Assembly: GCA_964532285.1 (NCBI GenBank)
Contig: CAZHHB010000003.1
Span: forward strand, 3,626 to 67,625
Reading direction: 5' to 3'
Origin: an uncultured Candidatus Saccharibacteria bacterium
GTDB taxonomy: Bacteria; Patescibacteriota; Minisyncoccia; Phycocordibacterales; PALSA-1337
DNA: 64,000 nt
Numbering within the stretch: position 1 is the stretch's first letter; each line of letters opens with the position of its first letter. A program made the translations under genes and the position numbers. The notes under the pieces are model-generated. The model had not been told where the DNA came from and searched no databases. It saw only the letters and a list, made by a program, of their open reading frames with translations. Shown here piece by piece: positions 13,270 through 61,532 of the stretch.

Positions 13270-13380
13270 CAGCTCTCCTTTCTGAGTGCAAATTACATCA
13301 TTAATAAGTTTTTGTCAAAGAAAAAAACCGTCCCTTTCTAGGTGCACGGTTTTTGATTTAAGGCGTACCGATGGAAGTTT

Positions 13381-14109: not shown

Positions 14110-14210
14110 ACGATTCTTCTACTTTCTTTTTGTTAAGGTTTCTGTGTGTTTATTGAAAACTTTCCGTCTCTGAACCCAATACTACATACTTTAAGGATTT
14201 TGTAAAGAGA

Positions 14211-14242
14211 TAATAAAAAAGCCATCCGATTTCGCGGATGGC
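14211..14242 (-). terminator. Rho-independent terminator after sigma gene
   Basis: Perfect 8-bp stem gccatccg/cggatggc followed (minus strand) by TTTTTT. Confidence 0.55.
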
Positions 14243-14263
14243 TGTGATTTCGACGCTTGTGCA

Positions 14264-17293: not shown

Positions 17294-17461
17294 TTTGTGC
17301 TCCTGTGGTTAATTGTTAATGTGCGAAAACTAAAAACACATTACATTACATATATATACTTGTCCAGTCACGGGGGAGCTTTACAGATATCTATTTTAAT
17401 GATATGAAGATGGTTAGATACTTTCAGTTTTTTGTAAATAAACCCTCAACCAAAGGACGAT

Positions 17462-19471
17462 ATGTACACACCTTATGACTATCAAGAAGGGTGTCTTGTT
17501 GTCTTAAAGACAACTCGCATCCAAGGAAAAACCGTCGCACTCATCGTGATGGCGAGCGGTCTTGGAAAGACCGTGACCGTTGCCTTCGATGCTAAAGAGT
17601 GGCTCAAGGAAAACAAGGGCAGGGTTTTATATCTCTGTCATCAGAACGATATTCTCGGCCAAGCTCAGCAGACGTTCGAGTCAATCCTCGGTAGCGGTTA
17701 CACTTACGGATTCTATACGGGTAGGGAAAAAACAGCCCACGGGGCAGATTTTCTGTTCGCCTCCTTCCAGACCATGGCGAAGAATACTCAAAGGGTGTTT
17801 TCGTCAGACGAATTCGCATACATCATTGTTGACGAGAGTCACCATTCGCAGGCGCCGTCTTATCTGAAGATCGTGGAATACTTCAAGCCGAAATTTCTGC
17901 TTGGAGCGACTGCCACGCCAGATCGTGCCGATAGTCTCAATATCCGCTCGGTTTTCGGCGAGGAAGTTTACAATCTTCCTCTCGAGAAAGCTCTTGCACA
18001 GGGACTGCTCACTAGAGTGAACTATCGCCTCGTCACGGACGAAATATCTCTCGACGAGGTCAACAGGACTAACGTCGAAGATTGGTCTCTCGAGGATATC
18101 GACCACAATGTCTTCATTCCCAAACGGGACGAAGAAATTTCCGCCTCAATCGATCGGCATGCGGCTGAACTTGAAGATCAGAGGATCATTGTCTTTGCGA
18201 GCACTATAGCTCGGGCCGAGCAGTTGGCCCAGCGCATTTCGGGAAGTATAACCATTCACTCCGAAGTTCCAACCAAGGAGAGATTGGTCAGGCTCGAAAT
18301 GTTTCGCCAGGGAATGGTTCGTGCGGTGATCACTGTTGATTGCTTTAACGAAGGTATCGACATACCAGAGGCTAATGTAATTGTGTTTCTGCGTTCGACG
18401 ACCTCGATGAGGATATTTTATCAACAGCTTGGTCGGGGCCTACGCCTCTCTCCAGGGAAAGATAAAGTTATCGTCCTCGATTTCGTAGGAAATGCAGAGC
18501 GACTCGTCATGCTCAAGGAACTTGCTGATGCAATTGGTATTCACTATTCGGAGGAAATGGCTGCTCGTGTAAACAAGCGGCAGAATCCCTTCGATATCAA
18601 ATTCGATGAAAAGGCTCAGGGCGTTCTGGATCTCGTCAAACGCATTCGCGTGAAACGAGTCGCTGATGTGCCTGATCTGCTCTTAGAGTATTCACCCCGC
18701 AACCCATTGTCTGCATCGAGTATCTCAGCCAAAAGCTGGAAAGATGTCTGGTGGAAATGCGGAAGATGCGAACATGAATGGCAAGCCAGCCCTGCCGCTA
18801 AAGCATATGGGAGGCAGTGTCCCAAATGTGAAGGACAAGTAACTGCGGAAAATAATCTTGCAGTTCTCCGTCCAAACCTCGCTAGGCAATACACAAGCCG
18901 AAATCTTCTCCCTGCAGATCAAATAATAGGGAAGACGAAAGAGATAGCTTGGTGGAAATGCCCTAAGTGCTCCTATGAATATGGGGCCAGACCTTACAGC
19001 CGCATATACCGAAGCGATGGCTGTCCTGCATGTGCGGCAGAAATGCCTGCATATAAAGACAACTTGGCGTTTCATTCACCCAAACTAGCACTTGAATACT
19101 CTTATACCAACATGCTCTCACCGGAACATGTCGGCTTCAGAACTACATTCGGGCGTTGGTGGATTTGCTCGGACTGTGGCAACAGCTATCAAGCGAGCGC
19201 GCTAGCTAGGGATAATGGAAAAGGCTGTCCAAGATGCACCGCTAAGGTCCCCACGAAAGTGGTCAACCTTATAACGACCCACCCTTTCCTTGCGGAAGAA
19301 TATTCCTCCAGAAACAGGAAATCGGCAGACACGATTCTTGCTGATACCGACGAACAGTTGTGGTGGGTATGCTCTTCTTGCGGCCGTTATTGGCAAGCAA
19401 GTGGAAGGGAACGACTCAACGGAAAGATTTGTCCCCATTGCCCCAAGCTGATACCGGTTTCGGTTGAGTAA
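17462..19471 (+). CDS. SF2 helicase (XPB/ResIII-like) with four C-terminal CxxC-CxxC zinc-ribbon repeats
   Basis: MASGLGKTVT (motif I), VDESHH (II), GATATPDR (III), QQLGRGLR (VI); C-terminal repeats WWKCGRCEHEW...CPKC x4. Confidence 0.75.
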   Translation: MYTPYDYQEGCLVVLKTTRIQGKTVALIVMASGLGKTVTVAFDAKEWLKENKGRVLYLCHQNDILGQAQQTFESILGSGYTYGFYTGREKTAHGADFLFASFQTMAKNTQRVFSSDEFAYIIVDESHHSQAPSYLKIVEYFKPKFLLGATATPDRADSLNIRSVFGEEVYNLPLEKALAQGLLTRVNYRLVTDEISLDEVNRTNVEDWSLEDIDHNVFIPKRDEEISASIDRHAAELEDQRIIVFASTIARAEQLAQRISGSITIHSEVPTKERLVRLEMFRQGMVRAVITVDCFNEGIDIPEANVIVFLRSTTSMRIFYQQLGRGLRLSPGKDKVIVLDFVGNAERLVMLKELADAIGIHYSEEMAARVNKRQNPFDIKFDEKAQGVLDLVKRIRVKRVADVPDLLLEYSPRNPLSASSISAKSWKDVWWKCGRCEHEWQASPAAKAYGRQCPKCEGQVTAENNLAVLRPNLARQYTSRNLLPADQIIGKTKEIAWWKCPKCSYEYGARPYSRIYRSDGCPACAAEMPAYKDNLAFHSPKLALEYSYTNMLSPEHVGFRTTFGRWWICSDCGNSYQASALARDNGKGCPRCTAKVPTKVVNLITTHPFLAEEYSSRNRKSADTILADTDEQLWWVCSSCGRYWQASGRERLNGKICPHCPKLIPVSVE

Positions 19472-19479
19472 GTTGTTTA

Positions 19480-19525
19480 TTTGAATCACGGGCCCCGTTG
19501 CTTACGCGCGGGGTCTTTTTGTACA
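19480..19525 (+). terminator. Probable rho-independent terminator
   Basis: ccccg...cgggg stem followed by tctttttg. Confidence 0.4.
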
Positions 19526-19621
19526 TTTTTATTGACATACTAATGAAATTATGATATCCATTACCCTAGAAACTTTGAAAAATAGGAGCTTAAAAACCTC
19601 CGCAAATAGAAAGAAAAACCT

Positions 19622-21616
19622 ATGTTTGAATCCAGATTCTATCAAGACGATTGCCTACGGATCCTTCAAAAGGTTCGACAAAAAGGCATACTTCGGGCGC
19701 TCGCTATAATGGCAAGTGGTCTCGGAAAGACGGTTACGATGGCCTTTGATGCCCTTAGTTTTCGAAAGCAATTTCCGAAGGCTCGGGTGCTCTACATTTG
19801 TCATCAAAATCAAATATCCAATCAGGCTCGTGGCACCTTTGAAGCGATCAACGGCAACAGTTGTACATATGGTTATTACAACGGCATCGAGAAGATCGCA
19901 CACTCAGTAGATTTCCTGTTCGCTTCATTTCAGACAATGAGAACGCACATGAAAAACTTTCGTCCAGACGAGTTCGACTATGTGGTTGTTGATGAAAGTC
20001 ATCACACATACGGCGACACTTTTTTGGATGTAGTGACCTACTGGAAGCCCAAGTTCCTGTTAGGGATGACGGCGACACCTGACCGCACTGACTGTCAAGA
20101 TATACGCAAAGTTTTTGGTCAGGAGGTATTCTACCTTCCGCTCGAAGAAGCACTTGCTCAAAGCCTGCTCACCCCGGTCGATTATCGCTTGATGACGGAT
20201 GAAATTCGACTCAAGAAGACGATCGAGTCGGCTGAACGGCGCTTGAGTTTGAAGATGCTTAATCGCACGATTTTTGTCCCAAGAAGGGATGAAGAAATTG
20301 TACGAATTATCCATAAACACTCACAAGAACTTCAAGAACCGAAGATTATCATCTTCTGTCAGTCGATTCAGTACGCTGAAGAATTGGCAAAGATCATGAC
20401 TGGGTCAATGACGATTCATTCGCGCGTATCGCTCAAGGAGAGGATTGTTCGAACAGAATTGTTCCGCCAAGGGCTCATCACTACGTTACTGACTGTGGAT
20501 GTTTTTAACGAAGGTATCGACATACCGGAAGCGAATGTTATCGTGTTCCTTAGGACCACAACATCTCACGTAATATTTTTCCAGCAACTCGGGCGCGGTC
20601 TGCGTCTGAGTGCTGGAAAGGATCGTGTGGTTGTTCTCGACTTTGTGGGTAGTTGCGAGCGAGTCAAAACCATCTACACTCTGTGGGACAATGTGAAAGC
20701 TCGCAGACAAAAAGTCATCAGTGCCACACCTGCTGCGAACCGAAACATGGGGAATCATACTTCTCGGAATATTGATCCCTTTTACCTCAATATGGGCGTC
20801 GTTGACTTCGAGGAGAAAATCCTCAAGGTGGTCGATATCGTTCGCAGGATCAATGACGGGTTTACTCGGGAGGAATGCATCTTGATGCTTCAGGCTTTTG
20901 CCGCACGGCTAAAGAGATCGCCCACACAAAAAGAAACCCATAAAAACAGACAGATGCCGAGTCAGTCTCTATATTGTAGGTACTTTGGTAGCCACACTGA
21001 GGCATTGAAGGCAGCGGGGCTTGCAGTCAATCAGATTCGAGATGTAACCGATGAAGAACTTCTTGAACAACTCCGAGGTGTCCAACAGAGGCTCGGTCAC
21101 TCACCTTCTCAGGGAGAACTCGCACAGGCTTCGAAAGACGGCTTGTGTTCTTGTGAACCTATGTTCCGTGAGCGCTTTGGATCGTTAAACGAGGCGCTTA
21201 AGGAAATTGGCTCAACACCTGCTCGGCAAGTTGGTCTCACAAAGATGGAGCTTGTCGCTCAGCTTCAGAAGCTGAAGGAGAAGGTCAAACGAGTTCCAAC
21301 GGTTGAGGATCTGATTGAAGCGTCAGCACAAAAGAAGATGGCAAGTTATTCTGTTTTCCGTAAGCACTTCAAGACCTGGAACAATGCACTTAGAGAAGCA
21401 GGCCTTACCGATAAAAAGGTCGAGGTACCTCACTATACCGAGGCAGAGTTGGTGGCTGATTTGAAAAAAGCCAACAGTATTCTGGGGCATGCACCAACGA
21501 CTGGGGATATGAATCGTCTTCGTAAGCAAGGGAAATTGAAAGTGGGAAGTCTCGGGGCTTTCTACTGGCGATTCAAGACTTGGAATAATACCCTCAAAGT
21601 CGCCGGATTGAAATAA
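19622..21616 (+). CDS. SF2 helicase (XPB/ResIII-like), paralog of the upstream gene, with four C-terminal homing-endonuclease-associated-type helical repeats
   Basis: Same motif set (MASGLGKTVT, VDESHH, GMTATPDR, QQLGRGLR); C-terminal ~45-aa repeats ending ...FKTWNNALREAGL x4. Confidence 0.7.
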   Translation: MFESRFYQDDCLRILQKVRQKGILRALAIMASGLGKTVTMAFDALSFRKQFPKARVLYICHQNQISNQARGTFEAINGNSCTYGYYNGIEKIAHSVDFLFASFQTMRTHMKNFRPDEFDYVVVDESHHTYGDTFLDVVTYWKPKFLLGMTATPDRTDCQDIRKVFGQEVFYLPLEEALAQSLLTPVDYRLMTDEIRLKKTIESAERRLSLKMLNRTIFVPRRDEEIVRIIHKHSQELQEPKIIIFCQSIQYAEELAKIMTGSMTIHSRVSLKERIVRTELFRQGLITTLLTVDVFNEGIDIPEANVIVFLRTTTSHVIFFQQLGRGLRLSAGKDRVVVLDFVGSCERVKTIYTLWDNVKARRQKVISATPAANRNMGNHTSRNIDPFYLNMGVVDFEEKILKVVDIVRRINDGFTREECILMLQAFAARLKRSPTQKETHKNRQMPSQSLYCRYFGSHTEALKAAGLAVNQIRDVTDEELLEQLRGVQQRLGHSPSQGELAQASKDGLCSCEPMFRERFGSLNEALKEIGSTPARQVGLTKMELVAQLQKLKEKVKRVPTVEDLIEASAQKKMASYSVFRKHFKTWNNALREAGLTDKKVEVPHYTEAELVADLKKANSILGHAPTTGDMNRLRKQGKLKVGSLGAFYWRFKTWNNTLKVAGLK

Positions 21617-46435: not shown

Positions 46436-46473
46436 GTCATTAGAAAACGCCAACCTGTGTGGCGTTTTCCTTT
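46436..46473. repeat. 38-bp perfect direct repeat (copy 1) containing a 9-bp-stem hairpin
   Basis: gtcattagaaaacgccaacctgtgtggcgttttccttt; identical copy at 51776-51813. Confidence 0.9.
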
Positions 46474-49603: not shown

Positions 49604-49626
49604 AGTCGCAGCTTATAGATCAATAT

Positions 49627-49827
49627 TCATTAGACGCTCTAAGCAGGAGGCGAGGATTTGACGATGGTCTGGGGTCGGATAGCCCAGTATTCGCGGTACC
49701 GAAATGTCCATTTTTTGATTACTCGTATAGTCACCTTGCAAGATCGTCCCGTGGGCAAACACACCACTCGCCCCGACCCAACTTTAAGTGTGATAAGCGG
49801 TTACTATTTCGCCACTCCTGCACGGAG
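49627..49827. repeat. ~200-bp repeat, copy 1 (~90% identical to 55012-55213)
   Basis: Begins TCATTAGAcgctct..., ends ...ccactcctgcacggag; shares the TCATTAGA start with the 38-bp repeat. Confidence 0.85.
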
Positions 49828-50103
49828 TAGGGAACACATTTATGAATAACCATGCACCATAGGCGTGCAAGTCAATTATCTATAATCTGTAATCAGTAAG
49901 TTATTATTCGAAAGCGGGCAAAAAGATTTGTTATTGGCGGGAATTACTCATGGAAATGACTTGCTACGAGCAAGCCAAACTTTTGCAACATCGGACGATC
50001 TATATCAATAGGGAATGGCTTTAAGAAGAATTGGGCTAGAAACAGACCATGTCGCACAATAGAAACTTGCAAGTCACATTGTCGCACAACTGTGGATAAC
50101 TTT

Positions 50104-50811
50104 TCACTGGTTCTGCCAGACCTCTACAAATGTACCAACATCATTATTATCGAAATGACTATCAAGAGGCCATATTTTCTTGAATTCAATTAGCTTAAAG
50201 CCTGCTGAAATAAATTGATCATGCGCAAATTTTCTTGAAACCTTGTACTCAAAATTATCGCTAGTAGCAGTCTGATTCAGAAACTTTTCCAGTTCAGGAG
50301 ATTTGTTAGGTATCTGATCGTACAAATATTTGTAATAATCAATGGTTATTTTTGGATTCGGACTATAAATCTCACCTAAGAATACTAAACCTTTTGACCG
50401 CAATGCTTTTTTGATCTGGGAGATGTATAGATCTTTTTTGTCATCAGGTACATGGTGGTATGCAAACATCGATATGACAATGTCGGATTTACTTGGAAAA
50501 TCAACATTCAATATATCATTAGAAATAATTTCAACCCGAGCGTGAATGTCTGATTTTTGCGCAATATCTAAAAATTCCTTATTGATATCGATTAGCAGTG
50601 CTCTCTTAATCGAAAATTTTTTGGAAAGAAGATTGGTATTGACTCCGGTACCACAGCAAAAGTCAGCGACAGTAATATCTGTGAGGTCTTGGAGATATTT
50701 ATTACATAAATCGAGGAATGCGGATTCGGCACCCGTATAGTCTGGCCTTAAATGTTGAAGCAAGTTGTAATCACCAGTTGATTTTTTGTATAACTCTATA
50801 TCAGCATCCAT
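50104..50811 (-). CDS. Class I SAM-dependent methyltransferase
   Basis: VADFCCGTGVNT motif I. Confidence 0.55.
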   Translation of the reverse strand: MDADIELYKKSTGDYNLLQHLRPDYTGAESAFLDLCNKYLQDLTDITVADFCCGTGVNTNLLSKKFSIKRALLIDINKEFLDIAQKSDIHARVEIISNDILNVDFPSKSDIVISMFAYHHVPDDKKDLYISQIKKALRSKGLVFLGEIYSPNPKITIDYYKYLYDQIPNKSPELEKFLNQTATSDNFEYKVSRKFAHDQFISAGFKLIEFKKIWPLDSHFDNNDVGTFVEVWQNQ

Positions 50812-50927
50812 GCTGCAATTTTACCACAAATTTTTATCTTTATTCATACCTACAGGCATATTACCAGAACCCACTCTGGACAGATGTTGACTTTCGTATT
50901 GTAATGTGGTAACCTCTTAGAAGTTCC

Positions 50928-51716
50928 TTGTTAAACAACCAACGTAGTATACTTAACCTCATGAACACAACTACTTCAGTTTCGGCAGAAGGGTTCGCCC
51001 TTCAACTCTCTCGGAGAGTCCTCGAACCTGAAGAAGTAATTTCAGGGGAAGAGGCAAAAGCATACGCCAATCGGCGTGACAACAGAACGCTGAGCTCAAA
51101 ACTCATCGCTACTGACATTGTGGAGAAGCTCTTGCTCACTCCTGCGTCAAACGTCTTGGAAGTCGCTTGTGGTCCCGGCCAGCTTGCTTATGAGCTTTGG
51201 AAAGTCGTAGGTTGCTCGATAACAGCAACCGACGGCAGTCCCGAACTTATCGAGGCAGCTACCGATCGCTACAAACAAACTTCGATACGCTTTGCTACGG
51301 AAAATCTGCATAGCCATAACGGGAAAGGGGAATACGATGCTGTGATCTGCAAAGATTCATTTCATCACTTCTTTGATTCCGAGAAGGCTGTCGCAGAGAT
51401 GCTCTCACTCTTGAAGCCCAGCGGTAAAATCTACATCTTTGATTTGTGCAGGAATGTGCGAATCGAAGAAGTGGAATATCGTTTGTCTTCGATACAGGCA
51501 TCACATGAACAGATGCGCTTTCTTAGGTCCTTGAACGCCTCGCTTACGGTTCAGGAATTTAAGGAAGCTTGCGGCACATCTAAGGTTTCTGTTTTCTACC
51601 CTCTCGGTTTCTCGCAAGAGAATCTGAATGCGCACGAAACAGAGATTGAGGCTGATGTTGTGAAGGAGTTCAAGCTCTCCTCGCTGTTCTCGGTATACAT
51701 TGTAGAAAAAATTTAA
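50928..51716 (+). CDS. Class I SAM-dependent methyltransferase
   Basis: VLEVACGPGQLA motif I; LKPSGKIYIFDL. Confidence 0.6.
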   Translation: MLNNQRSILNLMNTTTSVSAEGFALQLSRRVLEPEEVISGEEAKAYANRRDNRTLSSKLIATDIVEKLLLTPASNVLEVACGPGQLAYELWKVVGCSITATDGSPELIEAATDRYKQTSIRFATENLHSHNGKGEYDAVICKDSFHHFFDSEKAVAEMLSLLKPSGKIYIFDLCRNVRIEEVEYRLSSIQASHEQMRFLRSLNASLTVQEFKEACGTSKVSVFYPLGFSQENLNAHETEIEADVVKEFKLSSLFSVYIVEKI

Positions 51717-51775
51717 CCCCCGCGATCTGAAATATGGTCGCGGATTTCTGTTATTGTGATATACTAATGATGTTC

Positions 51776-51813
51776 GTCATTAGAAAACGCCAACCTGTGT
51801 GGCGTTTTCCTTT
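51776..51813. repeat. 38-bp perfect direct repeat (copy 2)
   Basis: Identical to 46436-46473. Confidence 0.9.
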
Positions 51814-51834
51814 ACTATATAGGCTGATTAATCT

Positions 51835-52257
51835 TTAGTCGGATTGAAGATTTTCTTGCAATTGAATAACATAGACCTTTCCAACATTCGGCATCTCAAT
51901 TTCCTCCGGGGTATAGCGTCCTTTATATTTTTTAGCATCAAGATCAAATTTAATAAGAAATGAATTTGCACTAATATGACCTCCTCCTTGTTTCGGAGCC
52001 ATCTTGATCTTCAACATACCTTCCTCAATTTTGTTAGAAAATTTGAAAGCTACAGCCTTTTTTTCCTTATCATAAAATAGCTTAACAGCTGAGGTGCTAG
52101 AATCGATGTCATATTTCTTTATAAATCCAGCACTTACACCAAATCCTCCACTTTCACCGAGGCTAATACTGGGTATAATCCGTCCACCTATTGCATTGTA
52201 TTCCTGAAAATTGTATTTATCCATACGCTGGTATACTAGCAAAATTCCATTAACCAT
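51835..52257 (-). CDS. Hypothetical protein
   Basis: ORF only. Confidence 0.3.
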   Translation of the reverse strand: MVNGILLVYQRMDKYNFQEYNAIGGRIIPSISLGESGGFGVSAGFIKKYDIDSSTSAVKLFYDKEKKAVAFKFSNKIEEGMLKIKMAPKQGGGHISANSFLIKFDLDAKKYKGRYTPEEIEMPNVGKVYVIQLQENLQSD

Positions 52258-52760
52258 GCAAGTTGCTCCAAACTTTACACTAATACATATTTATTATCTA
52301 ATCTATTATCCAGACATTTTTCTATTTACATTTCCGGTAGATATGCGGTACAATTGTGGTAATTGAAAAGGCCAGAACAGAGTTCTGACCGTATCAAGAT
52401 TACCAGCCGCCAAAATACTTATATACATAAAATGCTCTGACAGCGTTTGTGGGTCAACAGTATTTTGGCGAAATTAATCATTTTCTATAATACAGGAAAT
52501 GTTTAATGTCCGCAATCTAAGATATCAACACGTATGTACCGAACTCGCTTCGATATATACCAGGATATCGCTGGAGGTTTTAGGTGGAGATTGATCGCTG
52601 CAAACAACGAAATCGTTGCAATCAGTGAGTCATACACTTCTCGTCATGGCGCTCTTGCGTCAGCAAGGAAGGTCGCCGCTTGGGCCTCATCGGCAACGAT
52701 ACCTTCGGTATAAACCTCTCATGGTTTTTGAACACAGACTCATCATCGGGTCTGTGTTTT

Positions 52761-53924
52761 TTATACGAGCTCAATCAACTTTTTCAAAAACAATTTGCTA
52801 GCTTCAGTATCAATTTGATTATTCGAATTCAAAATAAGCTTATGAATGACGTCACCTTCAAATTGAGCAACTCCTCTAGAATTTCTACCAGCCCAGTGCT
52901 TTAGAAGAATCGTTGATTTGAGTAGATCCTTTTGGAACATTGAGATTAAAGTCTGCGCGACGATCTTGTTTGGTTCGAGCCCAATAAAATAGAACATGAA
53001 CACACTTTTTTCAGTAGAAAGGAAATCTAGAATTTTATCGAGGTTGTATGCCTTCGGATTTGATTTCAAGATCATAATCTTTGTCTTGACATCTGTTGCG
53101 GTCAAATATTTATCAAAAACTTTCGTATAGTCACCTAGATCATTTTTTGTGCCGTAAGGCGATATTTTCTTATTGGCATTGTGTAGTTCTTTCACAAGAT
53201 TTGCCCTAAGCGCTTCATCTTCACCAGCGATCAAGTATTCGATAATTCTGCCGCGGATATTAACATTTTCGATGAAGCCGGCGATTAGAATTTCAGTTTT
53301 GTATTTTTCTACTTTTGCATCGAGATCAGATTTCAAATCCTTGTACTCTTCTGATGTCACGAACTGCTTTGCTCTTTCTGGGGCTGATAATATTATGGCT
53401 TGGGCAGATGTTGATACTTCGAACTTCTTACCAGACGGAGTAATTCCAGTGGTAGCTTCGACAAGACGTGCTAAATTTCCGTTGAACCCGAGTTCCGCAT
53501 GTATGGAAAATAGTTGCTGAAAATTCTTGGGAGAATTAGTCAATCCATCAAAGATCTTAGTGATATCTGATCCATTAAAACTACCCCTGATATTATCCAC
53601 CCTAAATTCTTGTGAACTGTGGCTGATCTTCTTCAGAAATGTTGAATTGGCAAGATAAATGACGTTTTCCTTCGGCGTTACTAAACAAACTAAGAAAGGA
53701 ATTCCGTCATATTTTTGTAGGTTTGATAGTGAAAGGACCGTGTTAGAAAAGCTAAGAGAACCTGAAGAGCTGAATCGAATAGCACAATGCTCTGAATAAT
53801 ACACGCTTCGATCCTTGGTTAGACTAAATTTTTGTTGAACTTCATTTATTAGGACAGATTTATTACCAATACCATTCTTTAATAATATAAAGTCGATAAG
53901 TGCAAAGACTTTTTCGTTAATCAT
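52761..53924 (-). CDS. Putative restriction endonuclease partner of the N4/N6 MTase
   Basis: Start of MTase... stop overlap: this ORF begins 4 nt inside the upstream MTase gene (translationally coupled); no family recognised. Confidence 0.3.
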   Translation of the reverse strand: MINEKVFALIDFILLKNGIGNKSVLINEVQQKFSLTKDRSVYYSEHCAIRFSSSGSLSFSNTVLSLSNLQKYDGIPFLVCLVTPKENVIYLANSTFLKKISHSSQEFRVDNIRGSFNGSDITKIFDGLTNSPKNFQQLFSIHAELGFNGNLARLVEATTGITPSGKKFEVSTSAQAIILSAPERAKQFVTSEEYKDLKSDLDAKVEKYKTEILIAGFIENVNIRGRIIEYLIAGEDEALRANLVKELHNANKKISPYGTKNDLGDYTKVFDKYLTATDVKTKIMILKSNPKAYNLDKILDFLSTEKSVFMFYFIGLEPNKIVAQTLISMFQKDLLKSTILLKHWAGRNSRGVAQFEGDVIHKLILNSNNQIDTEASKLFLKKLIELV

Positions 53925-54943
53925 ATAAGTTGTGCCTGTAGATCAAATGCCATTTTCTTCTTTTCAGTCGTTTGATCAGTTAGCGAATTACGTTCCCAGA
54001 ATACACCATCAGCGTATCCTTGAATAGTTGGGCTATTTTCGACAAATCCGATACGCTTTTCTGCTAAGCAGCAATAGTCCTCATTCATCTCAACACCGAC
54101 ATAATTTCTGTTAAGCTTTTTGGCGACTACTGCGGTTGTGCCTGAGCCCAAAAATGGATCTAGTATTACATCACCCTCATTCGTTGAGGCTAGAATAATT
54201 TTAGCTACTAGCTTTTCAGGTTTTTGAGTCGGGTGATCAGTATTTTCTGGCATTGACCAGAAGGGAATAGTTATATCAGTCCAAAAATTTGATGGGTGTG
54301 TGAGTCTGAACTTTCCATCATCATCTTCTGTCCAATCCTTAGCAACCCCATTTTCTCTATAGGGAGCAATGACTTTTTTCTTCAATTTAACAGCATCAAC
54401 GTTAAACTTGTAGTCGTCAGATAGGGTGGCAAACCAAATATCCTCAGAGCAATTTTTCCAGTTACTCAAAGCACCTCGGCCTTTTTCTCTTTCCCATGTG
54501 ATACGGTTTCTGACTTTTAGATATTTATCTAATACATTAAAGATCATGGGGGAACTCTTCCAGTCACAACATACATAGACAGATGCATTCTCTTTGAGAG
54601 TGTGCATTATCGAAAGCAACCACTTTTCAAAAATTGCTTCATAATCATCCTTGTTTTTTTCACGGAATTTATTATTACCAAAATCCTTATTTAAATTATA
54701 GGGAGGATCAATAAATAGAAGGTCGACAAATCCTTTTGGTAATTTTCCTGACACATCTTCTAGCTGCCCATGTATGGTTTTATTAAGAAAATTGTTATCA
54801 ACATCCTGGCCTAGCAGTAATCTTTTACGCAGATATTCAACCTCGTCTGCTCGGACAAATGTGGTTCTATTATTTTTTGCTCTAATTTTTTCAATCATAT
54901 ATTTGTAGTTGTTAGTATTATACCAAATTTCGTGCAAAAACAA
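53921..54943 (-). CDS. DNA methyltransferase, beta-class N4-cytosine/N6-adenine (DNA methylase N-4/N-6 domain)
   Basis: FIDPPYN (motif IV, DPPY) preceding VILDPFLGSGTT (motif I). Confidence 0.8.
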   Translation of the reverse strand: MFLHEIWYNTNNYKYMIEKIRAKNNRTTFVRADEVEYLRKRLLLGQDVDNNFLNKTIHGQLEDVSGKLPKGFVDLLFIDPPYNLNKDFGNNKFREKNKDDYEAIFEKWLLSIMHTLKENASVYVCCDWKSSPMIFNVLDKYLKVRNRITWEREKGRGALSNWKNCSEDIWFATLSDDYKFNVDAVKLKKKVIAPYRENGVAKDWTEDDDGKFRLTHPSNFWTDITIPFWSMPENTDHPTQKPEKLVAKIILASTNEGDVILDPFLGSGTTAVVAKKLNRNYVGVEMNEDYCCLAEKRIGFVENSPTIQGYADGVFWERNSLTDQTTEKKKMAFDLQAQLI

Positions 54944-55011
54944 ACGATTTTCGATATAATGACAGCATTAACCCCACTGCCACTGCTTGACGAAGCAAGG
55001 GCAGTTTTTGT

Positions 55012-55213
55012 TCATTAGATGCTCTGTGCAAGAGGCGAGGATTTGACGAGAGTCTGGGGTCGGACTAGCCCAGTATTATCTTTACCGAAAAGTCCATTTT
55101 TTGATTACTCGTATAGTCACCTCGCAAGATCGTCCCGTGGACAAGCACACCACTCGTCCCGGCCCAACTTTAAGTGTGATAAGCGTTTACTATTCCGCCA
55201 CTCCTGCACGGAG
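55012..55213. repeat. ~200-bp repeat, copy 2, abutting the integrase gene
   Basis: Aligns with 49627-49827 with ~20 substitutions and a 1-nt indel. Confidence 0.85.
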
Positions 55214-55233
55214 CATCTTATGAAAGAACAAAG

Positions 55234-56094
55234 TCAGATATACTTCTGCGCGTTAGCCAGCATCTCGTTTTGATCGTAATTGAGATATATCAGGGCAGAG
55301 TAGGGGCTAACGTGACCGAGCATCATCTGAATATCTTTGAGATCCGCACCCCGAGCTTTCATACGGTGAGCTTTTGCATGTCTAAACATGTGCGGGGTGA
55401 TCTTTTTTGTGATGCCGGCCGATGCTGTAATCTCTCTGATCCATCGTTCGATGGTTCGAGGTGTTAAGCGTTCCCGTCCTGGCTTATCGAGAGACAAGAA
55501 CAAGCTTGGCTTTTGGTTGATGCAGATGCGACTACCGAGCCAACGGAGCAGGGTATTCTGGTGAAAATCCGGAGCCCAGGCGATAACACGGATACGCTTA
55601 TTTTTCTTTGTTTCGATGCAAGTATGATTTTCAGTTGATGACATCTGATTCACATTTAGCTCACATAATTCGCTTACACGAACGCCTGTGTTGTAGAGCA
55701 TATGGAGAATGGTCAGCTTTTGTAGATCGTGAAGCTCATATGGATTCAATGTTTTACACATTGCGTTGAATTCATCATCAGTGACACCCACACGGGGCTT
55801 TTGAGAATATTTTGGGCCCTCGATCAGGAATGGATTCACAGAGGATTCTTGGATCGAATTCAGGTAACGAAAGAAATTTTTGAGAATGCGACAGGAATAG
55901 GCCACTGTCGGAGGATTGTTTTTAGTAGAGAGAAATTTATGAAATTCCACGATATCCGTATTCTTCATATTTTTCGTATCCACATTGCGAAAATTCATCA
56001 GCCGGTGAAGATAGCTTTTGTATATGTCCGCTGCTCGCGGGCTTCTGATGACTTTCCAATCTAGATAATCTTTTATTGCTTGCTCTATAACCAT
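55234..56094 (-). CDS. Tyrosine recombinase / phage-type integrase
   Basis: C-terminal HMFRHAKAHRMKARGADLKDIQMMLGHVSPYSALIY (H-x-x-R ... H ... catalytic Y). Confidence 0.8.
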   Translation of the reverse strand: MVIEQAIKDYLDWKVIRSPRAADIYKSYLHRLMNFRNVDTKNMKNTDIVEFHKFLSTKNNPPTVAYSCRILKNFFRYLNSIQESSVNPFLIEGPKYSQKPRVGVTDDEFNAMCKTLNPYELHDLQKLTILHMLYNTGVRVSELCELNVNQMSSTENHTCIETKKNKRIRVIAWAPDFHQNTLLRWLGSRICINQKPSLFLSLDKPGRERLTPRTIERWIREITASAGITKKITPHMFRHAKAHRMKARGADLKDIQMMLGHVSPYSALIYLNYDQNEMLANAQKYI

Positions 56095-56111
56095 TGTATT
56101 TTTTGATTAAG

Positions 56112-56912
56112 TTAATAATTTATGACCCTGTATCTTTTGTAAGTGGTATGACCTGTCCATGTGTTGTAGGGAAGATCCCTGGATTCTTCAAGCTTGTACT
56201 CGATTGGTTTCTCATTTATGTATTCGATATCGAGTGGTGGATTGCGGATAACTATTGGCTTGATCAGTCCTCGGGAAGTGAAATAGCATTTTTCGTTGAA
56301 TAGTCTGGCGTCGACGACGCCTTTTTGCAGATACTTGGAAACGTATGCACCGATAGATTGAATGTGCTCGATTCTGTTGATTTTGATGAACCCATGAGAC
56401 CAGATTTTTGCCAGATCATCGTTGACTATGTAGGGAAGATTGAAGAAGACAGTGTGATAATGAACAGCTCCGCGTTTCTGAAATTCAACTACTGAAACAT
56501 ATTTGAGAGCGTGCCCGATTTGATAGTTCAGTCGCATCATGAATTTCCTCCACATCTCATTTGCCTCCTTGAGGATGGTAATATTTTCGGCGAAAGTGAA
56601 TGTTACGAACTTGTCTGAGTGTTCAGGATACTGACCGGAATTACATGCAATCAGGCGTCGTATATGCAGTCTGGCGCGTGATATTGAGAATGGTCGGCGT
56701 ATTCCTAGATTTCTATGTCCTGTGCGTTTCCTGCGGCGATTTCGAGACTTCAATTGACCACCGAAATGTATGTCTTTCTCAAATTCGTAGACTTCTTTAA
56801 CTGGACCAGAGATAACAGCTTTGTACTTTGAGAAATCTACTCCCCATTTAATTTTGTGTAATTCGTCGAAAGCCCTGCCAAGCTGATCGACAGAATATAT
56901 CTGATTGTCCAT
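56112..56912 (-). CDS. Rolling-circle replication initiator (HUH endonuclease superfamily Rep)
   Basis: Motif 1 FVTFTF, motif 2 VHYHTVFF (HUH), motif 3 YVSKYLQK (catalytic Tyr). Confidence 0.75.
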   Translation of the reverse strand: MDNQIYSVDQLGRAFDELHKIKWGVDFSKYKAVISGPVKEVYEFEKDIHFGGQLKSRNRRRKRTGHRNLGIRRPFSISRARLHIRRLIACNSGQYPEHSDKFVTFTFAENITILKEANEMWRKFMMRLNYQIGHALKYVSVVEFQKRGAVHYHTVFFNLPYIVNDDLAKIWSHGFIKINRIEHIQSIGAYVSKYLQKGVVDARLFNEKCYFTSRGLIKPIVIRNPPLDIEYINEKPIEYKLEESRDLPYNTWTGHTTYKRYRVINY

Positions 56913-56976
56913 GACTATTTAGTTTTTAATGATTCTGATTATGTGTGAGAGAGGTCGAGTCTAGAAAGAGTCTCAT

Positions 56977-57678
56977 TCATATATGATAAACCTTTTCAAA
57001 ACCACAGTTCGGATAATCACAGTGACGCTCCTCGTGTCTCAAGGCAGGGTAGGAGCCACGAACAATCTTTTGAGTAGTGTCGAAGATCTCACAGTAGCGA
57101 CGTTGAATAAGGAACATTGAGGGAACAGAGATCGAACTGGCAAACTTTTTCTTATCCTCATTGTAGGAACGAGGATCTAACTCACGAGAGAGACATACGC
57201 CCCATATACGCTCTACAGGAGGCCTTGTGGCACTTGGCCGGGGAGAACCAACAATCTTTCGAATCTCATAGAGGAAATTCGTCAGTCGACGGAATGATTT
57301 ATCAACTTGAGCAAAGTCCTGAGCAGATCCGTATACTTCTATTCCACACTTAGCACCTTGCGTAAGCCACTTACGGACATCGAGAGATAAATCTTGCCAC
57401 TGATGACTATCAAAGTAATTTCCGACTTCATCGATAATGACATCGCATTGTTCATACTTCACCAGATCATCCAGATTTTCCCAGTACATGATCGGGACTT
57501 TCATTTCTTCTACCGCCCATTTATAGAACTCTTCTGAAAAACGTAGATTCGAAACTATTGGCCGAACGACACCGCTTGTCTGTAACCACTTGGAGTTTCG
57601 ATATACAAGCTTCACACACATCATGGCGAGCCTTAAAGACTTACCGGATGATTCAAGACCTGAGTAGATTATTTTCAT
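56977..57678 (-). CDS. Zot-like P-loop NTPase (inovirus pI-type assembly ATPase)
   Basis: Walker A GLESSGKS near N-terminus, Walker B VIIDE; position next to pVI-like gene. Confidence 0.5.
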   Translation of the reverse strand: MKIIYSGLESSGKSLRLAMMCVKLVYRNSKWLQTSGVVRPIVSNLRFSEEFYKWAVEEMKVPIMYWENLDDLVKYEQCDVIIDEVGNYFDSHQWQDLSLDVRKWLTQGAKCGIEVYGSAQDFAQVDKSFRRLTNFLYEIRKIVGSPRPSATRPPVERIWGVCLSRELDPRSYNEDKKKFASSISVPSMFLIQRRYCEIFDTTQKIVRGSYPALRHEERHCDYPNCGFEKVYHI

Positions 57679-57704
57679 TTTATATTTATGTTATTTGTTA
57701 ATAA

Positions 57705-57971
57705 TTAACTGCCTGACTGATTACCGCGTAGGACAGAGACGACCCACTTCAACGCTTGCCATCCCCATATCGCAATATGGAACGTTAAGACAGTGCCCAC
57801 GCAGATAAACAATGTGTCGATCGGAAGAAGAAAATTCCATGCCTTCATATAACCGATGATCAGAGAAATCGACGATGCGATAACAGGGGAGAGTGCACCG
57901 GCCACAGGTAAAATATTCAGGACGACAATGAACAGACCGAGGAATAGAATGAAGAAGATTGCAAATGTCAT
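57705..57971 (-). CDS. Small multi-TM membrane protein (pVI-like position)
   Basis: Three hydrophobic helices; overlaps upstream gene by 4 nt. Confidence 0.35.
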   Translation of the reverse strand: MTFAIFFILFLGLFIVVLNILPVAGALSPVIASSISLIIGYMKAWNFLLPIDTLFICVGTVLTFHIAIWGWQALKWVVSVLRGNQSGS

Positions 57972-59377
57972 AGAAGTTTTCGATTCCTTGCCTCATGGAA
58001 CAGATACCATGCAGTCAAGAAATAAGTTACTGCGACCATTAATCCTCGTAAGAGACCAACATACGAGGGTGTTAAAAAATATCCGATCGTAGACGTGGAA
58101 AACATGTCTATCTTGATTGTCGTTGTAGCGGTAGCTACACCGGATATTCCGAACTTCACCGGAAACTTAACCGAGAAGGATCCGGAGGGAATGGCTGAGG
58201 CGGAGGTGGAACCATTAACAGCATTATAAATTACCGATGAAATTTGGAATACATAAGCGAAAGGAACTTTTGTAGCGAGAAGATTAGGAACATTAACAAA
58301 CGAGAGCATATCTGTAGAAGTCGGAAGAGAATTATTCCCAAAATTCGCACCAGTAAAAGGATTATTGTTGATACCCCCTGCGACAATTGTCGAAGAAGTA
58401 GCCACAGTAGTGGTAGTAGTAGAAGTAAGCAGAGCAGGAGCCACCCCGGAACCGGTAAATGGATCATACCCGCAAGTGGATTGATAGAGTTGAGCATTGA
58501 ACTGTTGATTTGGAGTTAACGAGTAAGTTGTTGAGGTCGCACCAACGGAAACGCTAGAGTCTATAATATCGAATGTGAAATTGAAGGCGCCGGAAGTAGT
58601 GGCATAGATAGGAGCGGTCGTGATAGGGAAGACACCATGCAGAGAAAGTTGTCGATGAGATTCAAGGCCAGTGTTCTGCCAGACATCAAGATACTGAGAA
58701 GCACACGCCGTTGTTGAAGCTGTCCATGTACCGCTGACATTGAATGTACCGGCAGCAGGATTGAGAGTGGTAGAGGTAACGGCGGGAGTATAAGTCTGAC
58801 CGTATTGATCAGTAACTATAAAATACGCGTCATTTATTGTAGAACAAGTACCCGTAGAGCCATTCATAGTGCCTGTACCAGTAAGACACTGACCATTCGC
58901 ATACGTATTAGCTACTGAACCATAAAGCTTAACTGTTATGAATTGCCCCCAAGATCCAATACCTACATAGAGATACTTACCAGCAGTAATTACAGTGGTT
59001 GTGGAATATGTAAGATACTGAAGATAGTCATTGCTACCTAAACTGTCTTGACCACCGCCTAAATTTCCGGCGGTCGACAAAAGGGTATAGTTAATACACT
59101 GCGACATATCCGTAACCAAGTTGTCACAAGTAATCGCGCGGATGCCGCCACCACCAGAATATGTAGAATTGTAACGAATCGAAACCCTACCCAAAGTAAA
59201 TGTTGAAGAAACCTGACCCAGAGACTGCAAGAAGAAACGTGATTGACCAGAACCAATACCATAAGTAGCGCCAGAGCTATAATCAGTTTGCTGATACAGA
59301 GTGGCCGCATTAGCTGACCTTGATCCCAAAAAGACCAAAGAGAGCAGAAAGAGGGAAGTGTAGATTATTTTCTTCAT
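57968..59377 (-). CDS. Secreted Ser/Thr/Gly-rich protein (pIII-like adsorption protein position)
   Basis: Signal peptide MKKIIYTSLFLLSLVFLGSRSANA; low-complexity T/S/G-rich body; C-terminal hydrophobic anchor. Confidence 0.45.
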   Translation of the reverse strand: MKKIIYTSLFLLSLVFLGSRSANAATLYQQTDYSSGATYGIGSGQSRFFLQSLGQVSSTFTLGRVSIRYNSTYSGGGGIRAITCDNLVTDMSQCINYTLLSTAGNLGGGQDSLGSNDYLQYLTYSTTTVITAGKYLYVGIGSWGQFITVKLYGSVANTYANGQCLTGTGTMNGSTGTCSTINDAYFIVTDQYGQTYTPAVTSTTLNPAAGTFNVSGTWTASTTACASQYLDVWQNTGLESHRQLSLHGVFPITTAPIYATTSGAFNFTFDIIDSSVSVGATSTTYSLTPNQQFNAQLYQSTCGYDPFTGSGVAPALLTSTTTTTVATSSTIVAGGINNNPFTGANFGNNSLPTSTDMLSFVNVPNLLATKVPFAYVFQISSVIYNAVNGSTSASAIPSGSFSVKFPVKFGISGVATATTTIKIDMFSTSTIGYFLTPSYVGLLRGLMVAVTYFLTAWYLFHEARNRKLL

Positions 59378-59644
59378 GAGATAAGGTTAAAACTAATAAT
59401 TCTGATTGTTCCTCGCATGCCACATAGGAATGATGTGATTTTTGAAATTTATTCTGTAAAGGGGATTCGCCTGTTGTTTATCGCAAGAAAAATTTAACGC
59501 AAATTTTTCTTGCTCGGGGAACTCACCCCTTGACAGAACAAATTCTCAAAAATACTGATCCTCATATGGCATGCGAGGGACGCCCGCATACCAGGTGTAG
59601 TCGGCGGCTCGGAGCTTCGCAATTCCGAGTCCGCCGACCTACAT

Positions 59645-59953
59645 CTAGAACTTCCTGCCAGTGATGTAGTGCTTGAACTTCCTGATACCCCAGCCGAGAC
59701 CCAATAGGGCAGCCAAGAGACCAAGAATCGCGCCAACTACAGCTCCAATGATCACAGCGACGTCACCGACGAGGCTATTGACCAAGGTAGGCGCTGTCGT
59801 AGTTCCAAAGGTATCCGCAAACGCATACGAACAGGTTGCGATTACTCCGGTAACAACTCCAACGACACCAGCAAGCTTGTACTTCAATTTTGAAATCATA
59901 TTTGCTTGAATTAATTTTAATAATGCTGATCTGGTGCCGGTGCCGAAACACAC
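59645..59953 (-). CDS. Major coat protein-like (pVIII-like)
   Basis: Signal peptide ending AFA, acidic N-terminus (DTFGTT), hydrophobic core, basic C-terminus RKFKHYITGRKF; start probably internal (MISKLKYK). Confidence 0.5.
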   Translation of the reverse strand: MCFGTGTRSALLKLIQANMISKLKYKLAGVVGVVTGVIATCSYAFADTFGTTTAPTLVNSLVGDVAVIIGAVVGAILGLLAALLGLGWGIRKFKHYITGRKF

Positions 59954-60267
59954 GACCCATTAATGTATCGACCTGGAGTGCGAACTCCGAACGCTCCCTC
60001 AAACGAATCTACTAAAATTTGAGAGAGCTCTCGGAACTAACAACTATGATCTCCACCAAAAGAGTAATAATGACCAAACTAGCCCCACAGCTATGCCATA
60101 GCCACTGCAATATCCGAAAAATAGAACTACATCGAGGTTAGACATATCGGTTAATGGTCTCGCATAATGAACCACTTAAATATCGTCAAGGGCACCATGA
60201 AATAGAGTGGTATGAACCAGATCTGCATGAACTCTTGAGGTATTGCGAGATAATCCATGGATTAGAT

Positions 60268-60480
60268 TTAAGATTTTCTAAACAGCCAAATGATAAAGAT
60301 CATGGAGGCCATAGCTACCCCAAAACCGTATGCGAACAGAAGGGGAGTGAGATCGACACTGACAGTGCTCGTACCGACCGATGAGCAAGAAGATTCTGAA
60401 AACTGGAAGAACTCTCCGGATACCGGGGCAGTGTCTTGACCGTTTAATGGAACCGAATATGTGCAGTTTTCAGTTATCAT
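60268..60480 (-). CDS. Small coat-like membrane protein
   Basis: C-terminal TM + basic tail (MASMIFIIWLFRKS). Confidence 0.3.
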   Translation of the reverse strand: MITENCTYSVPLNGQDTAPVSGEFFQFSESSCSSVGTSTVSVDLTPLLFAYGFGVAMASMIFIIWLFRKS

Positions 60481-60484
60481 AGAT

Positions 60485-60667
60485 TTACTTTATGGTCGGC
60501 AACTTGTCCTCGGGATTTAGTGCTTCTTCGAAGATGTGTTTCCAGAAATAGAAAACGGTAGGATCGTTAGCGAAGTAAGCACAGAGCATAAATATCAAGG
60601 AATCGGGCACGACGTTCTTATTGATTGCAAGTGATTTGTTGTTCACTTTGATGTGTATGTTTTTCAC
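60485..60667 (-). CDS. Small hypothetical phage protein
   Basis: ORF in module. Confidence 0.2.
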   Translation of the reverse strand: MKNIHIKVNNKSLAINKNVVPDSLIFMLCAYFANDPTVFYFWKHIFEEALNPEDKLPTIK

Positions 60668-60763
60668 GTTATTATTTTATTTTTTTGTTACGATGTTGCG
60701 ATGTATACATGAGCCGCCAAGGAAGTAAGCTTGGAAACTCATGATGAAAGGGAATAGGTGCGA

Positions 60764-60997
60764 CTAGAGAGGTCTGACGGCGACGATCTTGAGCGAAGCC
60801 AGGCGGTTGCTGCCGGAGACGATGTCTATGTCGGCTTCAACGTCTTGATCGAGCAGGTTTGCAATATTGCCAACCTTGTTGCGATCGAGCTTGAACTTCA
60901 AAATCTTGCCGTTATAACGAGCTTGGATATTGGAGTACTTGACCCCTTGATATTCACCCTCGTTAAATTCGAACAAAGCCAATTTGATTGTTTGCAT
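60764..60997 (-). CDS. Small protein at head of phage module (possible ssDNA-binding gV analogue)
   Basis: 77 aa, position and size only. Confidence 0.2.
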   Translation of the reverse strand: MQTIKLALFEFNEGEYQGVKYSNIQARYNGKILKFKLDRNKVGNIANLLDQDVEADIDIVSGSNRLASLKIVAVRPL

Positions 60998-61226
60998 GTA
61001 GCGTTTGGATTAGAAAATCGCCCGTGATCTCCCGTGCAGGGAAATATCACAGACGATTCTGTTTTGTTTATAAACGACCTTTAATGTTGGTAGGGAGGCC
61101 CTTACTAGCCGGGCTTTGCTCTCAACACTCTGGGTCTATTGTATGTCGCACAATATATCTTTTTGCATTATGTATACCTGATAAAGGAGCCCTTATATTG
61201 ATATAGGCGTTGACCTAGGTGGATAC

Positions 61227-61532
61227 TTACTCAAAGATGCTACCGGAGTCTGTCGTACTGGATGTTTTATCCTTCAGTAGAGTGTTTATGGCGGGTTTCC
61301 ATATGAGTGGTACGAATACATCACTCCAAATGTAATTTACGGGCTTCTTGAGATAAGAATTCCATACAGTGATCGCATTGCCACTAACAAATGACCAATT
61401 GTCCTGAAATGTCGGTGAAGCTACGATGCCACGAATGTTCAGACCTAGGTAGGAGATGATCAAAAGAACAACGATGAAGATCATGATTGACTTCACCAGT
61501 CCCCTGTTTGTGTTTGTATAGGGAAGTCCCAT
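61227..61532 (-). CDS. Small membrane protein
   Basis: N-terminal TM MIFIVVLLIISYLGL. Confidence 0.3.
   Translation of the reverse strand: MGLPYTNTNRGLVKSIMIFIVVLLIISYLGLNIRGIVASPTFQDNWSFVSGNAITVWNSYLKKPVNYIWSDVFVPLIWKPAINTLLKDKTSSTTDSGSIFE

Follow-up and report, generated by a model that had tools for sequence, protein, structure and literature searches.

The Ff phages (M13, fd and f1) carry their genes in the order VII-IX-VIII-III-VI-I, make a pVIII coat protein with a cleaved leader, initiate replication with an HUH protein, and have large intergenic hairpins; they also possess a secretin, pIV, and a pI protein with a transmembrane helix and a periplasmic domain, and they have no integrase. 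OH3 (Paulinoviridae, Thomixvirus), an isolated phage of Thermus, arranges its genes as II-V-VII-IX-VIII-III-VI-morphogenesis, without a secretin, and phiOH16 is OH3 plus a mobility gene, a transposase, the genomes of the two falling between 5.7 and 6.5 kb. Inoviruses, recognized as prophages or circular contigs by a pI-like ATPase and short single-transmembrane proteins, have been reported from a further 22 phyla, among them the candidate phyla radiation (CPR), and placed in six candidate families; tyrosine recombinases are among their integration genes, and their attachment (att) sites lie in tRNAs or beside the integrases (Roux 2019, PMC6813254). Here we describe a locus in a 64,000-nucleotide stretch of DNA from an uncultured Candidatus Saccharibacteria bacterium (contig CAZHHB010000003.1, positions 3,626 to 67,625; hereafter the window), of which positions 55011–61162 are very probably an inovirus-type (Tubulavirales) temperate filamentous prophage residing in a CPR/Patescibacteria chromosome. 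We found no description of a characterized CPR filamentous phage in the literature searched, and to our knowledge none has been isolated from the CPR or Patescibacteria.

The prophage, about 6 kb long, looks intact. Translation recovers, on the minus strand between 55234 and 60997, every open reading frame (ORF) that a first-pass annotation of the window had listed, and their arrangement is the canonical Rep-(Int)-small ORFs-VII/IX-like-VIII-III-VI-I. The VIII-III-VI-I order that the annotation had recognized is shared by OH3, whose full gene order equals that of the window. Its further claim that a secretin is missing also holds: there is none among the ORFs of the module or their Pfam matches, and the sole ORF of more than 300 amino acids encodes the 469-aa protein described below. 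The window resembles the Ff phages in gene order, in a coat protein whose leader would be cleaved off, in its HUH initiator and in its large intergenic hairpins, but by hydropathy, ORF content and Pfam matches the window module contains no Ff-type pI with transmembrane helix and periplasmic domain and no secretin, and the likeness in sequence consists of a weak match to the PHROG family "protein I of M13". The Thermus phages, for their part, share approximately 25% identity with the window over the N-domain of the ATPase only, encode a far longer Rep (446 aa, annotated "replication endonuclease," compared with 266 aa here), and have no annotated counterpart of the tRNA-like element that adjoins the integrase gene in the window.

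The integrase gene (55234–56094, minus strand; 286 aa) encodes a tyrosine recombinase, as had been proposed. The product matches the Pfam family Phage_integrase (PF00589) at 1.3e-28 over profile positions 4–170 of 172 and PHROG 1 at 1.4e-34, and the catalytic motifs R...HxxR...H/W...Y can be read in it as VRVSE, HMFRH and GHVSPYSALIY. At 59% identity or more, its homologues make up a small clade of approximately 30 clusters, all on chromosomal contigs. Of the four whose contigs were examined, P0122, P0126 and P0147 adjoin the same Rep/ATPase module, whereas P0146, which at 59% is the most distant, lies on a contig without phage genes (L051; related contigs and loci are designated by L numbers). 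Upstream of the integrase gene in the same orientation, the Rep gene (56112–56912, minus strand; 266 aa) likewise bears out its first description, the HUH motifs reading FVTFTF, HYHTVFF and YVSKYLQK; the protein matches PF23343 (REP_ORF2-G2P) at 6.8e-22 and PHROG 3419 (rolling-circle initiation) at 2.3e-24, and in tblastn searches it is 40% identical over 88% of its length to the Rep of bajarodino virus 41 and also matches the Reps of Ralstonia RSM-type inoviruses.

The next gene (56977–57678, minus strand; 233 aa) encodes a P-loop ATPase (GLESSGKS, DVIIDEVG). As judged from its sequence, it is a short pI/Zot-like member of the FtsK-HerA superfamily, of the kind expected in Tubulavirales. It matches PHROG 20922 at 3.5e-8 and PHROG 1675, "protein I of M13," at 7.5e-5, and 15 of 20 aligned relatives match Pfam Zot, the best at 1.1e-5. 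A profile of the family compared with the sequences of the PDB gave a single match (E = 0.006), to 2r2a, deposited as "Uncharacterized protein," which we take to be the Zot N-terminal domain of Neisseria. The invariant residues of the family include a C-terminal Cys/His cluster (C196, H215, C220, C225 and H232), and no transmembrane segment was found with the hydropathy script, the highest value over 19 residues being 0.67. The OH3 ATPase is longer (318 aa), and the Cys/His tail was not seen in it. Since that protein also has no strongly hydrophobic segment, and since a transposase sets phiOH16 apart from OH3 much as a tyrosine integrase sets the window phage apart from relatives that lack one, neither a pI protein without a transmembrane helix nor an optional mobility gene is unprecedented.

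The remaining proteins of the module are those expected to build the particle; throughout, transmembrane helices and signal peptides were judged with a hydropathy script (19-residue window) and the −3/−1 rule, and we assign putative pIII, pVI and pV counterparts by position and topology only. The candidate major coat protein (59645–59899, minus strand) is an 84-aa precursor from its ATG with a mature form of about 56 aa, and the pVIII-like character ascribed to it earlier is upheld: a hydrophobic leader ends in AFA|D, and an acidic start leads into a hydrophobic core of 38 residues and then a basic tail, RKFKHYITGRKF; by tblastn the protein is kept in relatives at 39–100% identity. The 469-aa protein (57968–59377, minus strand) may be a pIII-like adsorption protein, secreted and anchored by its C-terminus. 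By eye it has a signal-like N-terminus (...SANA|ATLY), Ser/Thr-rich stretches and a hydrophobic C-terminus, but the hydropathy scan stayed below the transmembrane threshold, with a maximum of 1.55. Its C-terminal part of approximately 110 aa is kept in distant relatives while the N-terminal part varies (tblastn), as expected of an adsorption protein. The 88-aa polytopic membrane protein (57705–57971, minus strand), whose gene overlaps the start of the ATPase gene in L006 and L007, could, from its position, be the counterpart of pVI, or else the partner of the ATPase in the membrane. It is kept at 35–100% identity in all relatives, including free 5-kb genomes (tblastn). Three transmembrane helices had been counted in it; overlapping hydrophobic stretches across residues 1–71 are compatible with about that number, but the scan did not separate them.

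Two tiny ORFs (60044–60258, minus strand) encode proteins of 35 aa (p35) and 43 aa (p43; 33 aa from an internal ATG), each with one transmembrane-like segment, and are pVII/pIX-like by size and by position, sitting where OH3 has genes VII and IX. The two had been noted before, although the gap in which they were placed, between p77 and the coat gene, in fact holds four small ORFs. By tblastn both are found in L004–L009 and L015, and p43 additionally in L014. Beyond them lie the genes of p70, p60 and p77 (60268–60997, minus strand). A C-terminal transmembrane segment is present in p70, and both p70 and p77 are kept in relatives (tblastn). The module holds short single-transmembrane structural proteins of 84, 35, 43 and 70 aa, all of them kept in relatives (hydropathy, tblastn). 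We regard p77 as a candidate single-stranded DNA (ssDNA)-binding protein by position. Its AlphaFold2 model, built on a shallow alignment of 28 close homologues, is all-beta with a predicted local distance difference test score (pLDDT) of 62, and a Foldseek search with this low-confidence model, looking for an ssDNA-binding OB fold, returned no matches.

Between the coat gene and the gene of the 469-aa protein is a gap of 267 nt (59378–59644) that, folded as DNA of the coding sense, reaches −65.5 kcal/mol (z = −10.4) and forms hairpins of 48 nt and approximately 170 nt. The inverted repeat persists in L004 and L008. Comparison with Ff makes this region a candidate for a terminator, a packaging signal or the minus-strand origin. 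A scan for promoters and terminators was uninformative, giving fewer matches than shuffled sequence.

Relatives of the module are numerous. Homologues of the ATPase fall into more than 770 clusters at 90% identity, nearly all on contigs of 4–5 kb, and clustering at 50% leaves 599 representatives (E ≤ 1e-3); in almost all of 150 cluster representatives listed, the protein is 225–260 aa long. L006 and L007 lack an integrase and carry, in this order, the coat protein, a protein of about 465 aa, one of about 88 aa, the ATPase, Rep and small ORFs; L007 has an exact terminal overlap of 121 nt, which makes it a closed circle of 5,053 nt. Besides the coat protein, tblastn finds p70, the 88-aa protein, the C-terminal part of the 469-aa protein and both tiny ORFs, of which p43 is the more widely kept, to be conserved in distant relatives. 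The best match in the GenBank phage collection is the ATPase of MG945510 (38% identity over 91% of the query), followed by bajarodino inoviruses from rodent faeces and then by the Thermus phages OH3 and phiOH16. MG945510.1 (L012) is a 5,022-nt circular genome from flamingo faeces that is filed as "Microviridae sp." (unverified) with VP1, VP2 and VP4 notes. It encodes relatives of the Zot-like ATPase and of Rep, and the microvirus names do not suit this content; it is more likely a small filamentous phage than a microvirus. Like the window phage, MG945510 and the bajarodino viruses (filed under Inoviridae), circles of about 5 kb, have short Zot-like proteins (241–246 aa) with no transmembrane segment; unlike it, they come from animal faeces, have no known host, and carry neither an integrase nor a tRNA-like element. 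IMG/VR yielded only four contigs with a relative of the ATPase, compared with the 599 clusters from a large protein library. Given the near absence of the clade from IMG/VR and the filing of its closest GenBank relative as a microvirus, virome surveys probably under-count these phages.

The window comes from a 68-kb ENA metagenome contig (ERZ27247837, k141_2239250). The CPR-like host proposed at the outset is supported by the company the prophage keeps. Related prophages occur in a metagenome-assembled genome (MAG) of Candidatus Taylorbacteria (L008), which belongs to the Parcubacteria group of Patescibacteria, in a MAG labelled Candidatus Saccharibacteria (L009), and in the complete 876-kb chromosome OY969557.1 (L011, the same place as L004), and on contigs from 0.1-µm fractions of Hainich groundwater. 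The site is also shared. In the window the prophage lies downstream of gltX, an M23 peptidase gene and the gene of a small (101-aa) membrane protein; in L004, L008, L009 and L053 a prophage directly follows a homologue of the 101-aa gene, which in L004, L009 and L053 comes after gltX, by way of the M23 peptidase gene except in L004. The host genes at these loci are only approximately 43–51% (protein) and 66–76% (DNA) identical to those of the window, whereas L009 is 87% identical to the window over 55009–61163, where the similarity stops and the flanks become unrelated. Near-identical phages at the same site in diverged hosts indicate an element that has been recently mobile and is site specific.

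The right end of the prophage is a non-coding region (60998–61162) containing, at 61143–61157, a core, ATGTCGCACAATATA, that is identical in all lysogens, with the sequence beyond it varying from host to host; the right junction of the prophage is formed by this core. In L040 the core and, after it, its inverse make up an 11-6-11 palindrome, ATGTCGCACAA TATACA TTGTGCGACAT, a layout that suggests a dif-type site or another tyrosine-recombinase site. The core on its own resembles, in layout, one arm plus spacer of a dif-type site. Phages that integrate at dif by means of host XerCD (CTXphi, VGJphi and those of Xanthomonas and Ralstonia) offer a parallel in the dif-like look of the core, in a long hairpin-forming element at the opposite end, and in the tandem arrays and remnants that gather at the site, but the window phage encodes its own recombinase, and no sign was found that the core is the dif of its host or that ssDNA is what integrates. 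At the left end, the homology among lysogens stops at the outer end of the tRNA-like element (55009–55011). Comparison with an uninfected relative had been suggested as a means of finding attL and attR; no clean direct repeat of the two ends was found. The one att candidate seen in the window, TTTTTG(TT)CATTA, was not reproduced in L009 or L004. In the phage-free locus of L020 and L030 (L020 8140–8300, Hainich groundwater), gltX, the M23 gene and the small membrane protein gene are followed by the core; then, after 37 nt, come the 54 nt with which the element ends and an NYN gene. We considered this as a clean empty site and rejected it as such, for it holds only the core and those last 54 nt, and an attB or a doubly truncated remnant would both fit.

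Several results weigh against a temperate filamentous phage. The coat, pIII-, pVI-, pVII/IX- and pV-like proteins have no family matches in Pfam or PHROG, the 469-aa protein and the coat candidate among them. Of the profile searches once recommended as a check, that with Rep succeeds, the ATPase is placed by PHROG and at the level of its family, and the coat-like ORF finds no family. The signal peptides and transmembrane helices rest on the hydropathy script and the −3/−1 rule. The Zot-type label given to the ATPase has the support already described, but the window protein itself scores E = 0.011 and 15.7 bits against Pfam Zot, for which the cut-off is 20.3, and has no transmembrane helix; its AlphaFold2 model (20 sequences; pLDDT 80.6), compared with the PDB by Foldseek, retrieved generic P-loop NTPases only (FlhF, RecA, FlaH; TM-scores 0.3–0.43), and the fold search adds nothing specific to the sequence evidence. 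No direct repeat of 10 nt or more was found between the two ends of the 6.1-kb unit, no evidence points to excision or to particles, and no circular genome with an integrase was found among the relatives. From the absence of family matches for the structural proteins, and from an ATPase that is weakly Zot-like and without a transmembrane helix, one could argue for a non-viral integrative element, plasmid-like or a secretion module, that happens to carry a Zot-like ATPase and a Rep. We consider this highly improbable, for the set of small transmembrane proteins and its order match those of an isolated filamentous phage, OH3, and the relatives are circles of 4–5 kb that, apart from these genes and some small ORFs, encode little. 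A defective, cryptic remnant that no longer excises or makes particles is a more reasonable proposal, and decay at such loci is documented: the ATPase gene of the L004/L011 prophage (10001–10519) is cut to 172 aa, nothing is left in L045 but the element, 29 codons of the integrase gene, the core and 176 nt of the right end, and truncated ends are kept in L018 and L020. A circular integrase-bearing genome was also sought as a source of attP, and the seven integrase or Rep relatives looked up, none of them episomal, are all chromosomal. Nevertheless, the ORFs of the window are all full length and collinear with relatives that are 87–98% identical in different hosts, and spread to hosts with diverged flanking genes implies recent mobility; we think it unlikely that the window holds such a remnant.

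If the locus is a functional filamentous prophage, its life cycle might run as follows. Recombination by the integrase would join the double-stranded replicative form to the host site, in or close to the core ATGTCGCACAATATA. Once the phage had been excised, Rep would nick the plus-strand origin and drive rolling-circle synthesis of ssDNA, which p77 may coat. The 84-aa protein would enter the membrane, be cut after AFA, and polymerize around the DNA, the two tiny transmembrane proteins beginning the filament and the 469-aa and 88-aa proteins capping it and mediating adsorption. Extrusion would be powered by the soluble 233-aa ATPase, which probably docks to a partner in the membrane, for instance the 88-aa protein, and a secretin would be unneeded because the host has no outer membrane.

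The left end of the prophage is occupied by a structured element (55011–55224, minus strand) that lies 10–25 nt 3′ of the integrase stop codon. A 200-bp repeat adjoining the integrase gene had been remarked on, and the repeat is real (55011–55213, copy B, and 49626–49827, copy A, are approximately 90% identical), but it is a tRNA-like structured element rather than a plain repeat. The element folds much more stably than shuffled sequence, with z scores of −6.0 on the minus strand and −4.6 on the plus strand. In the minus sense it shows a 7-bp acceptor-like stem, GCAGGAG/CUCUUGC in copy B and CUCCUGC on the 3′ side in most other copies, followed by UG and a D-arm, GCGG-AAUAGGUAGA-CGC, that reads GUGGCGGAAUAGUAAACGC in copy B and GGUAGACGC in other copies and that we believe to be nearly identical to the D-arm of bacterial tRNA-Leu. 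Two variable hairpins and a T-stem (GCGAGG/CCUCGC) with a U...UCAAAU loop complete it, the T-loop being interrupted by a conserved hairpin of 49–72 nt that starts GACUAUACGAG. On an alignment of 15 distinct copies (A4), collected by an exact 18-mer search that is biased to recently spread sequences, RNAalifold places a closing helix of 19 pairs together with three short helices that do not vary; 96.9% of the cells are paired, both partners have changed in 15 pairs, not one of these measures is attained in 500 shuffles, and pairing falls to approximately 40% when the partners are slid. Pairs that are G-U in the minus sense, and hence A-C mismatches in the plus sense, are commoner than the reverse, which indicates that the folded strand has the sense of the integrase gene. 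The integrase sense is also that of the packaged strand in inoviruses.

The likeness to tRNA is confined to the acceptor, D-arm and T-stem, and no canonical tRNA or transfer-messenger RNA (tmRNA) was recognized. ARAGORN finds neither in the window, and Rfam gives nothing at its gathering thresholds and no tRNA or tmRNA match for three copies even at E ≤ 10. An ordinary tRNA-Leu carrying an insertion was tried and rejected, since ARAGORN, with the T-loop insertion deleted and its threshold relaxed, gives nothing more than inconsistent, low-score calls. We also discarded the idea of a guide RNA: the 6-nt loop (ATCTTT in copy B) matches sequence beside the core, but its hairpin is absent from L025 and L034, and the match, being irreproducible, is probably coincidence. 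According to nhmmer, the element occurs beside integrase genes, in remnants, and as three divergent copies without an integrase (L021, L032 and L049); it is absent from the integrase-less 5-kb relatives, and the window has only the two copies already known. The L021 copy (560–761) has no integrase nearby. The L049 copy (8173–8394) is surrounded by what appear by eye to be HNH-endonuclease, NinG-like and lysin genes, which suggests a tailed-phage region in an organism of higher G+C.

Outward from the prophage, on the far side of the element, the window contains genes of another kind and a second core. Copy A (49626–49827), a 207-nt spacer without similarity to phage sequence and the second core site together span 49626–50103. 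The site itself (50049–50103) consists of ATGTCGCACAATAGA at 50049–50063 and GTCGCACAA again at 50081, followed by TGTGGATAA, presumably the reverse complement of the DnaA-box consensus; its first 13 nt equal those of the right-end core. Past the element, the window, L052 and L062 have 3–5 kb of varying defence-type genes (restriction-modification [R-M] types, NYN, AAA/SMC) and then two GTCGCAYAA motifs and TGTGGATAA, and L034 has a single core and the TGTGGATAA motif approximately 3 kb beyond the element. Directly beyond the element in the window is an R-M pair (52761–54943, minus strand), an N6/N4 methylase (53921–54943) and its 387-aa partner (52761–53924). Near-identical phages have other genes in this place, Dam-type methylases in L061 and L062, NYN and AAA/SMC in L052, and NYN only in L053.

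Whether the element belongs to the phage, and where the mobile unit ends, are questions best considered together. It is possible that the element is a host gene that serves the integrase as a landmark. Genes for tRNA are common targets of tyrosine integrases, and att sites in tRNAs were used in an earlier survey of inoviruses (Roux 2019, PMC6813254). Neither an integrase nor phage genes accompany the divergent copies of L021 and L049, copy A of the window adjoins no remnant of a phage, the relatedness of the integrases does not agree with that of the middle part of the element, and the 18-mer search, favouring recently spread copies, could have missed those of hosts. A host landmark does not sit easily, however, with a phage that lies 5′ of the element rather than 3′, as with classical tRNA targets, or with another junction that has no partial copy of it, and phage-free L020 has the last 54 nt only and no complete gene. 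The position of the element, always 10–25 nt after the integrase stop codon (every complete close copy except copy A has an integrase gene or its remnant that distance upstream), its retention with the core in deletion remnants, the lack of a complete copy in L020, and the 95–96% identity of copy A to the copies of L004 and L005, much more distant hosts whose genes are only approximately 68–70% identical to those of the window, lead us to lean toward an element borne by the phage, as an RNA or att arm of its integration module. A phage carrying the whole element would be expected to form the circular junction ...CACAATATATCTTT(TTG)/TTCATTAGATGC. The mobile unit might instead be larger, an 11.1-kb array (50049–61157) of phage and R-M cargo between two cores. 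The identity of ATGTCGCACAATA at 50049 and 61143 (13/13 nt) invites this reading, as do the cargoes of L052 and L062, which end at the same double-core site, the single core with TGTGGATAA in L034, and the different cargo (R-M types, NYN, AAA) of near-identical phages. We find it doubtful, because L009 and L053 contain the same phage without the cargo, homology to the window ends at the outer end of the element, and some of the window cargo is contained in an island of its own, 5.3 kb long and with a perfect repeat of 38 nt at each end.

Those repeats (46436–46473 and 51776–51813) are direct, include a terminator-like hairpin, GTCATTAGAAAACGCCAACCTGTGTGGCGTTTTCCTTT, and enclose a Dcm-type methylase, an EcoRII-C-like enzyme, copy A of the element and two S-adenosylmethionine-dependent methyltransferases. 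L009 and L010 have one copy of the 38-nt site together with both flanks, and the 5.3-kb segment thus looks like an inserted island without an integrase of its own. Elsewhere in the window, positions 10000–21500 have a G+C content of 0.45–0.51, compared with 0.37–0.42 around them, and contain ORFs of 779, 1009, 669 and 664 aa; this block may be foreign DNA or a distinct class of genes.

CPR inoviruses and inovirus tyrosine recombinases have already been reported (Roux 2019, PMC6813254), and the window phage belongs to a known kind. What goes beyond the catalogue is the size and the neglect of the clade with the short ATPase, the tRNA-like element tied to the integrase, and the exchangeable defence cargo. 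We speculate, tentatively, that the element represents a new family of structured RNA, or of folded ssDNA, carried by integrase-bearing CPR filamentous phages in a portable module of integrase, element and core. Such an element might mimic a tRNA, and so mark the attachment site, form it, or control expression of the integrase, and the module might nucleate exchangeable R-M cargo. The locus offers a complete and apparently intact gene set, a defined chromosomal site in occupied and phage-free versions, and hundreds of relatives, and is a concrete starting point for finding the particles and their hosts. The element, together with the defence cargo that is swapped beside it, could teach us how such small phages integrate and what they carry.

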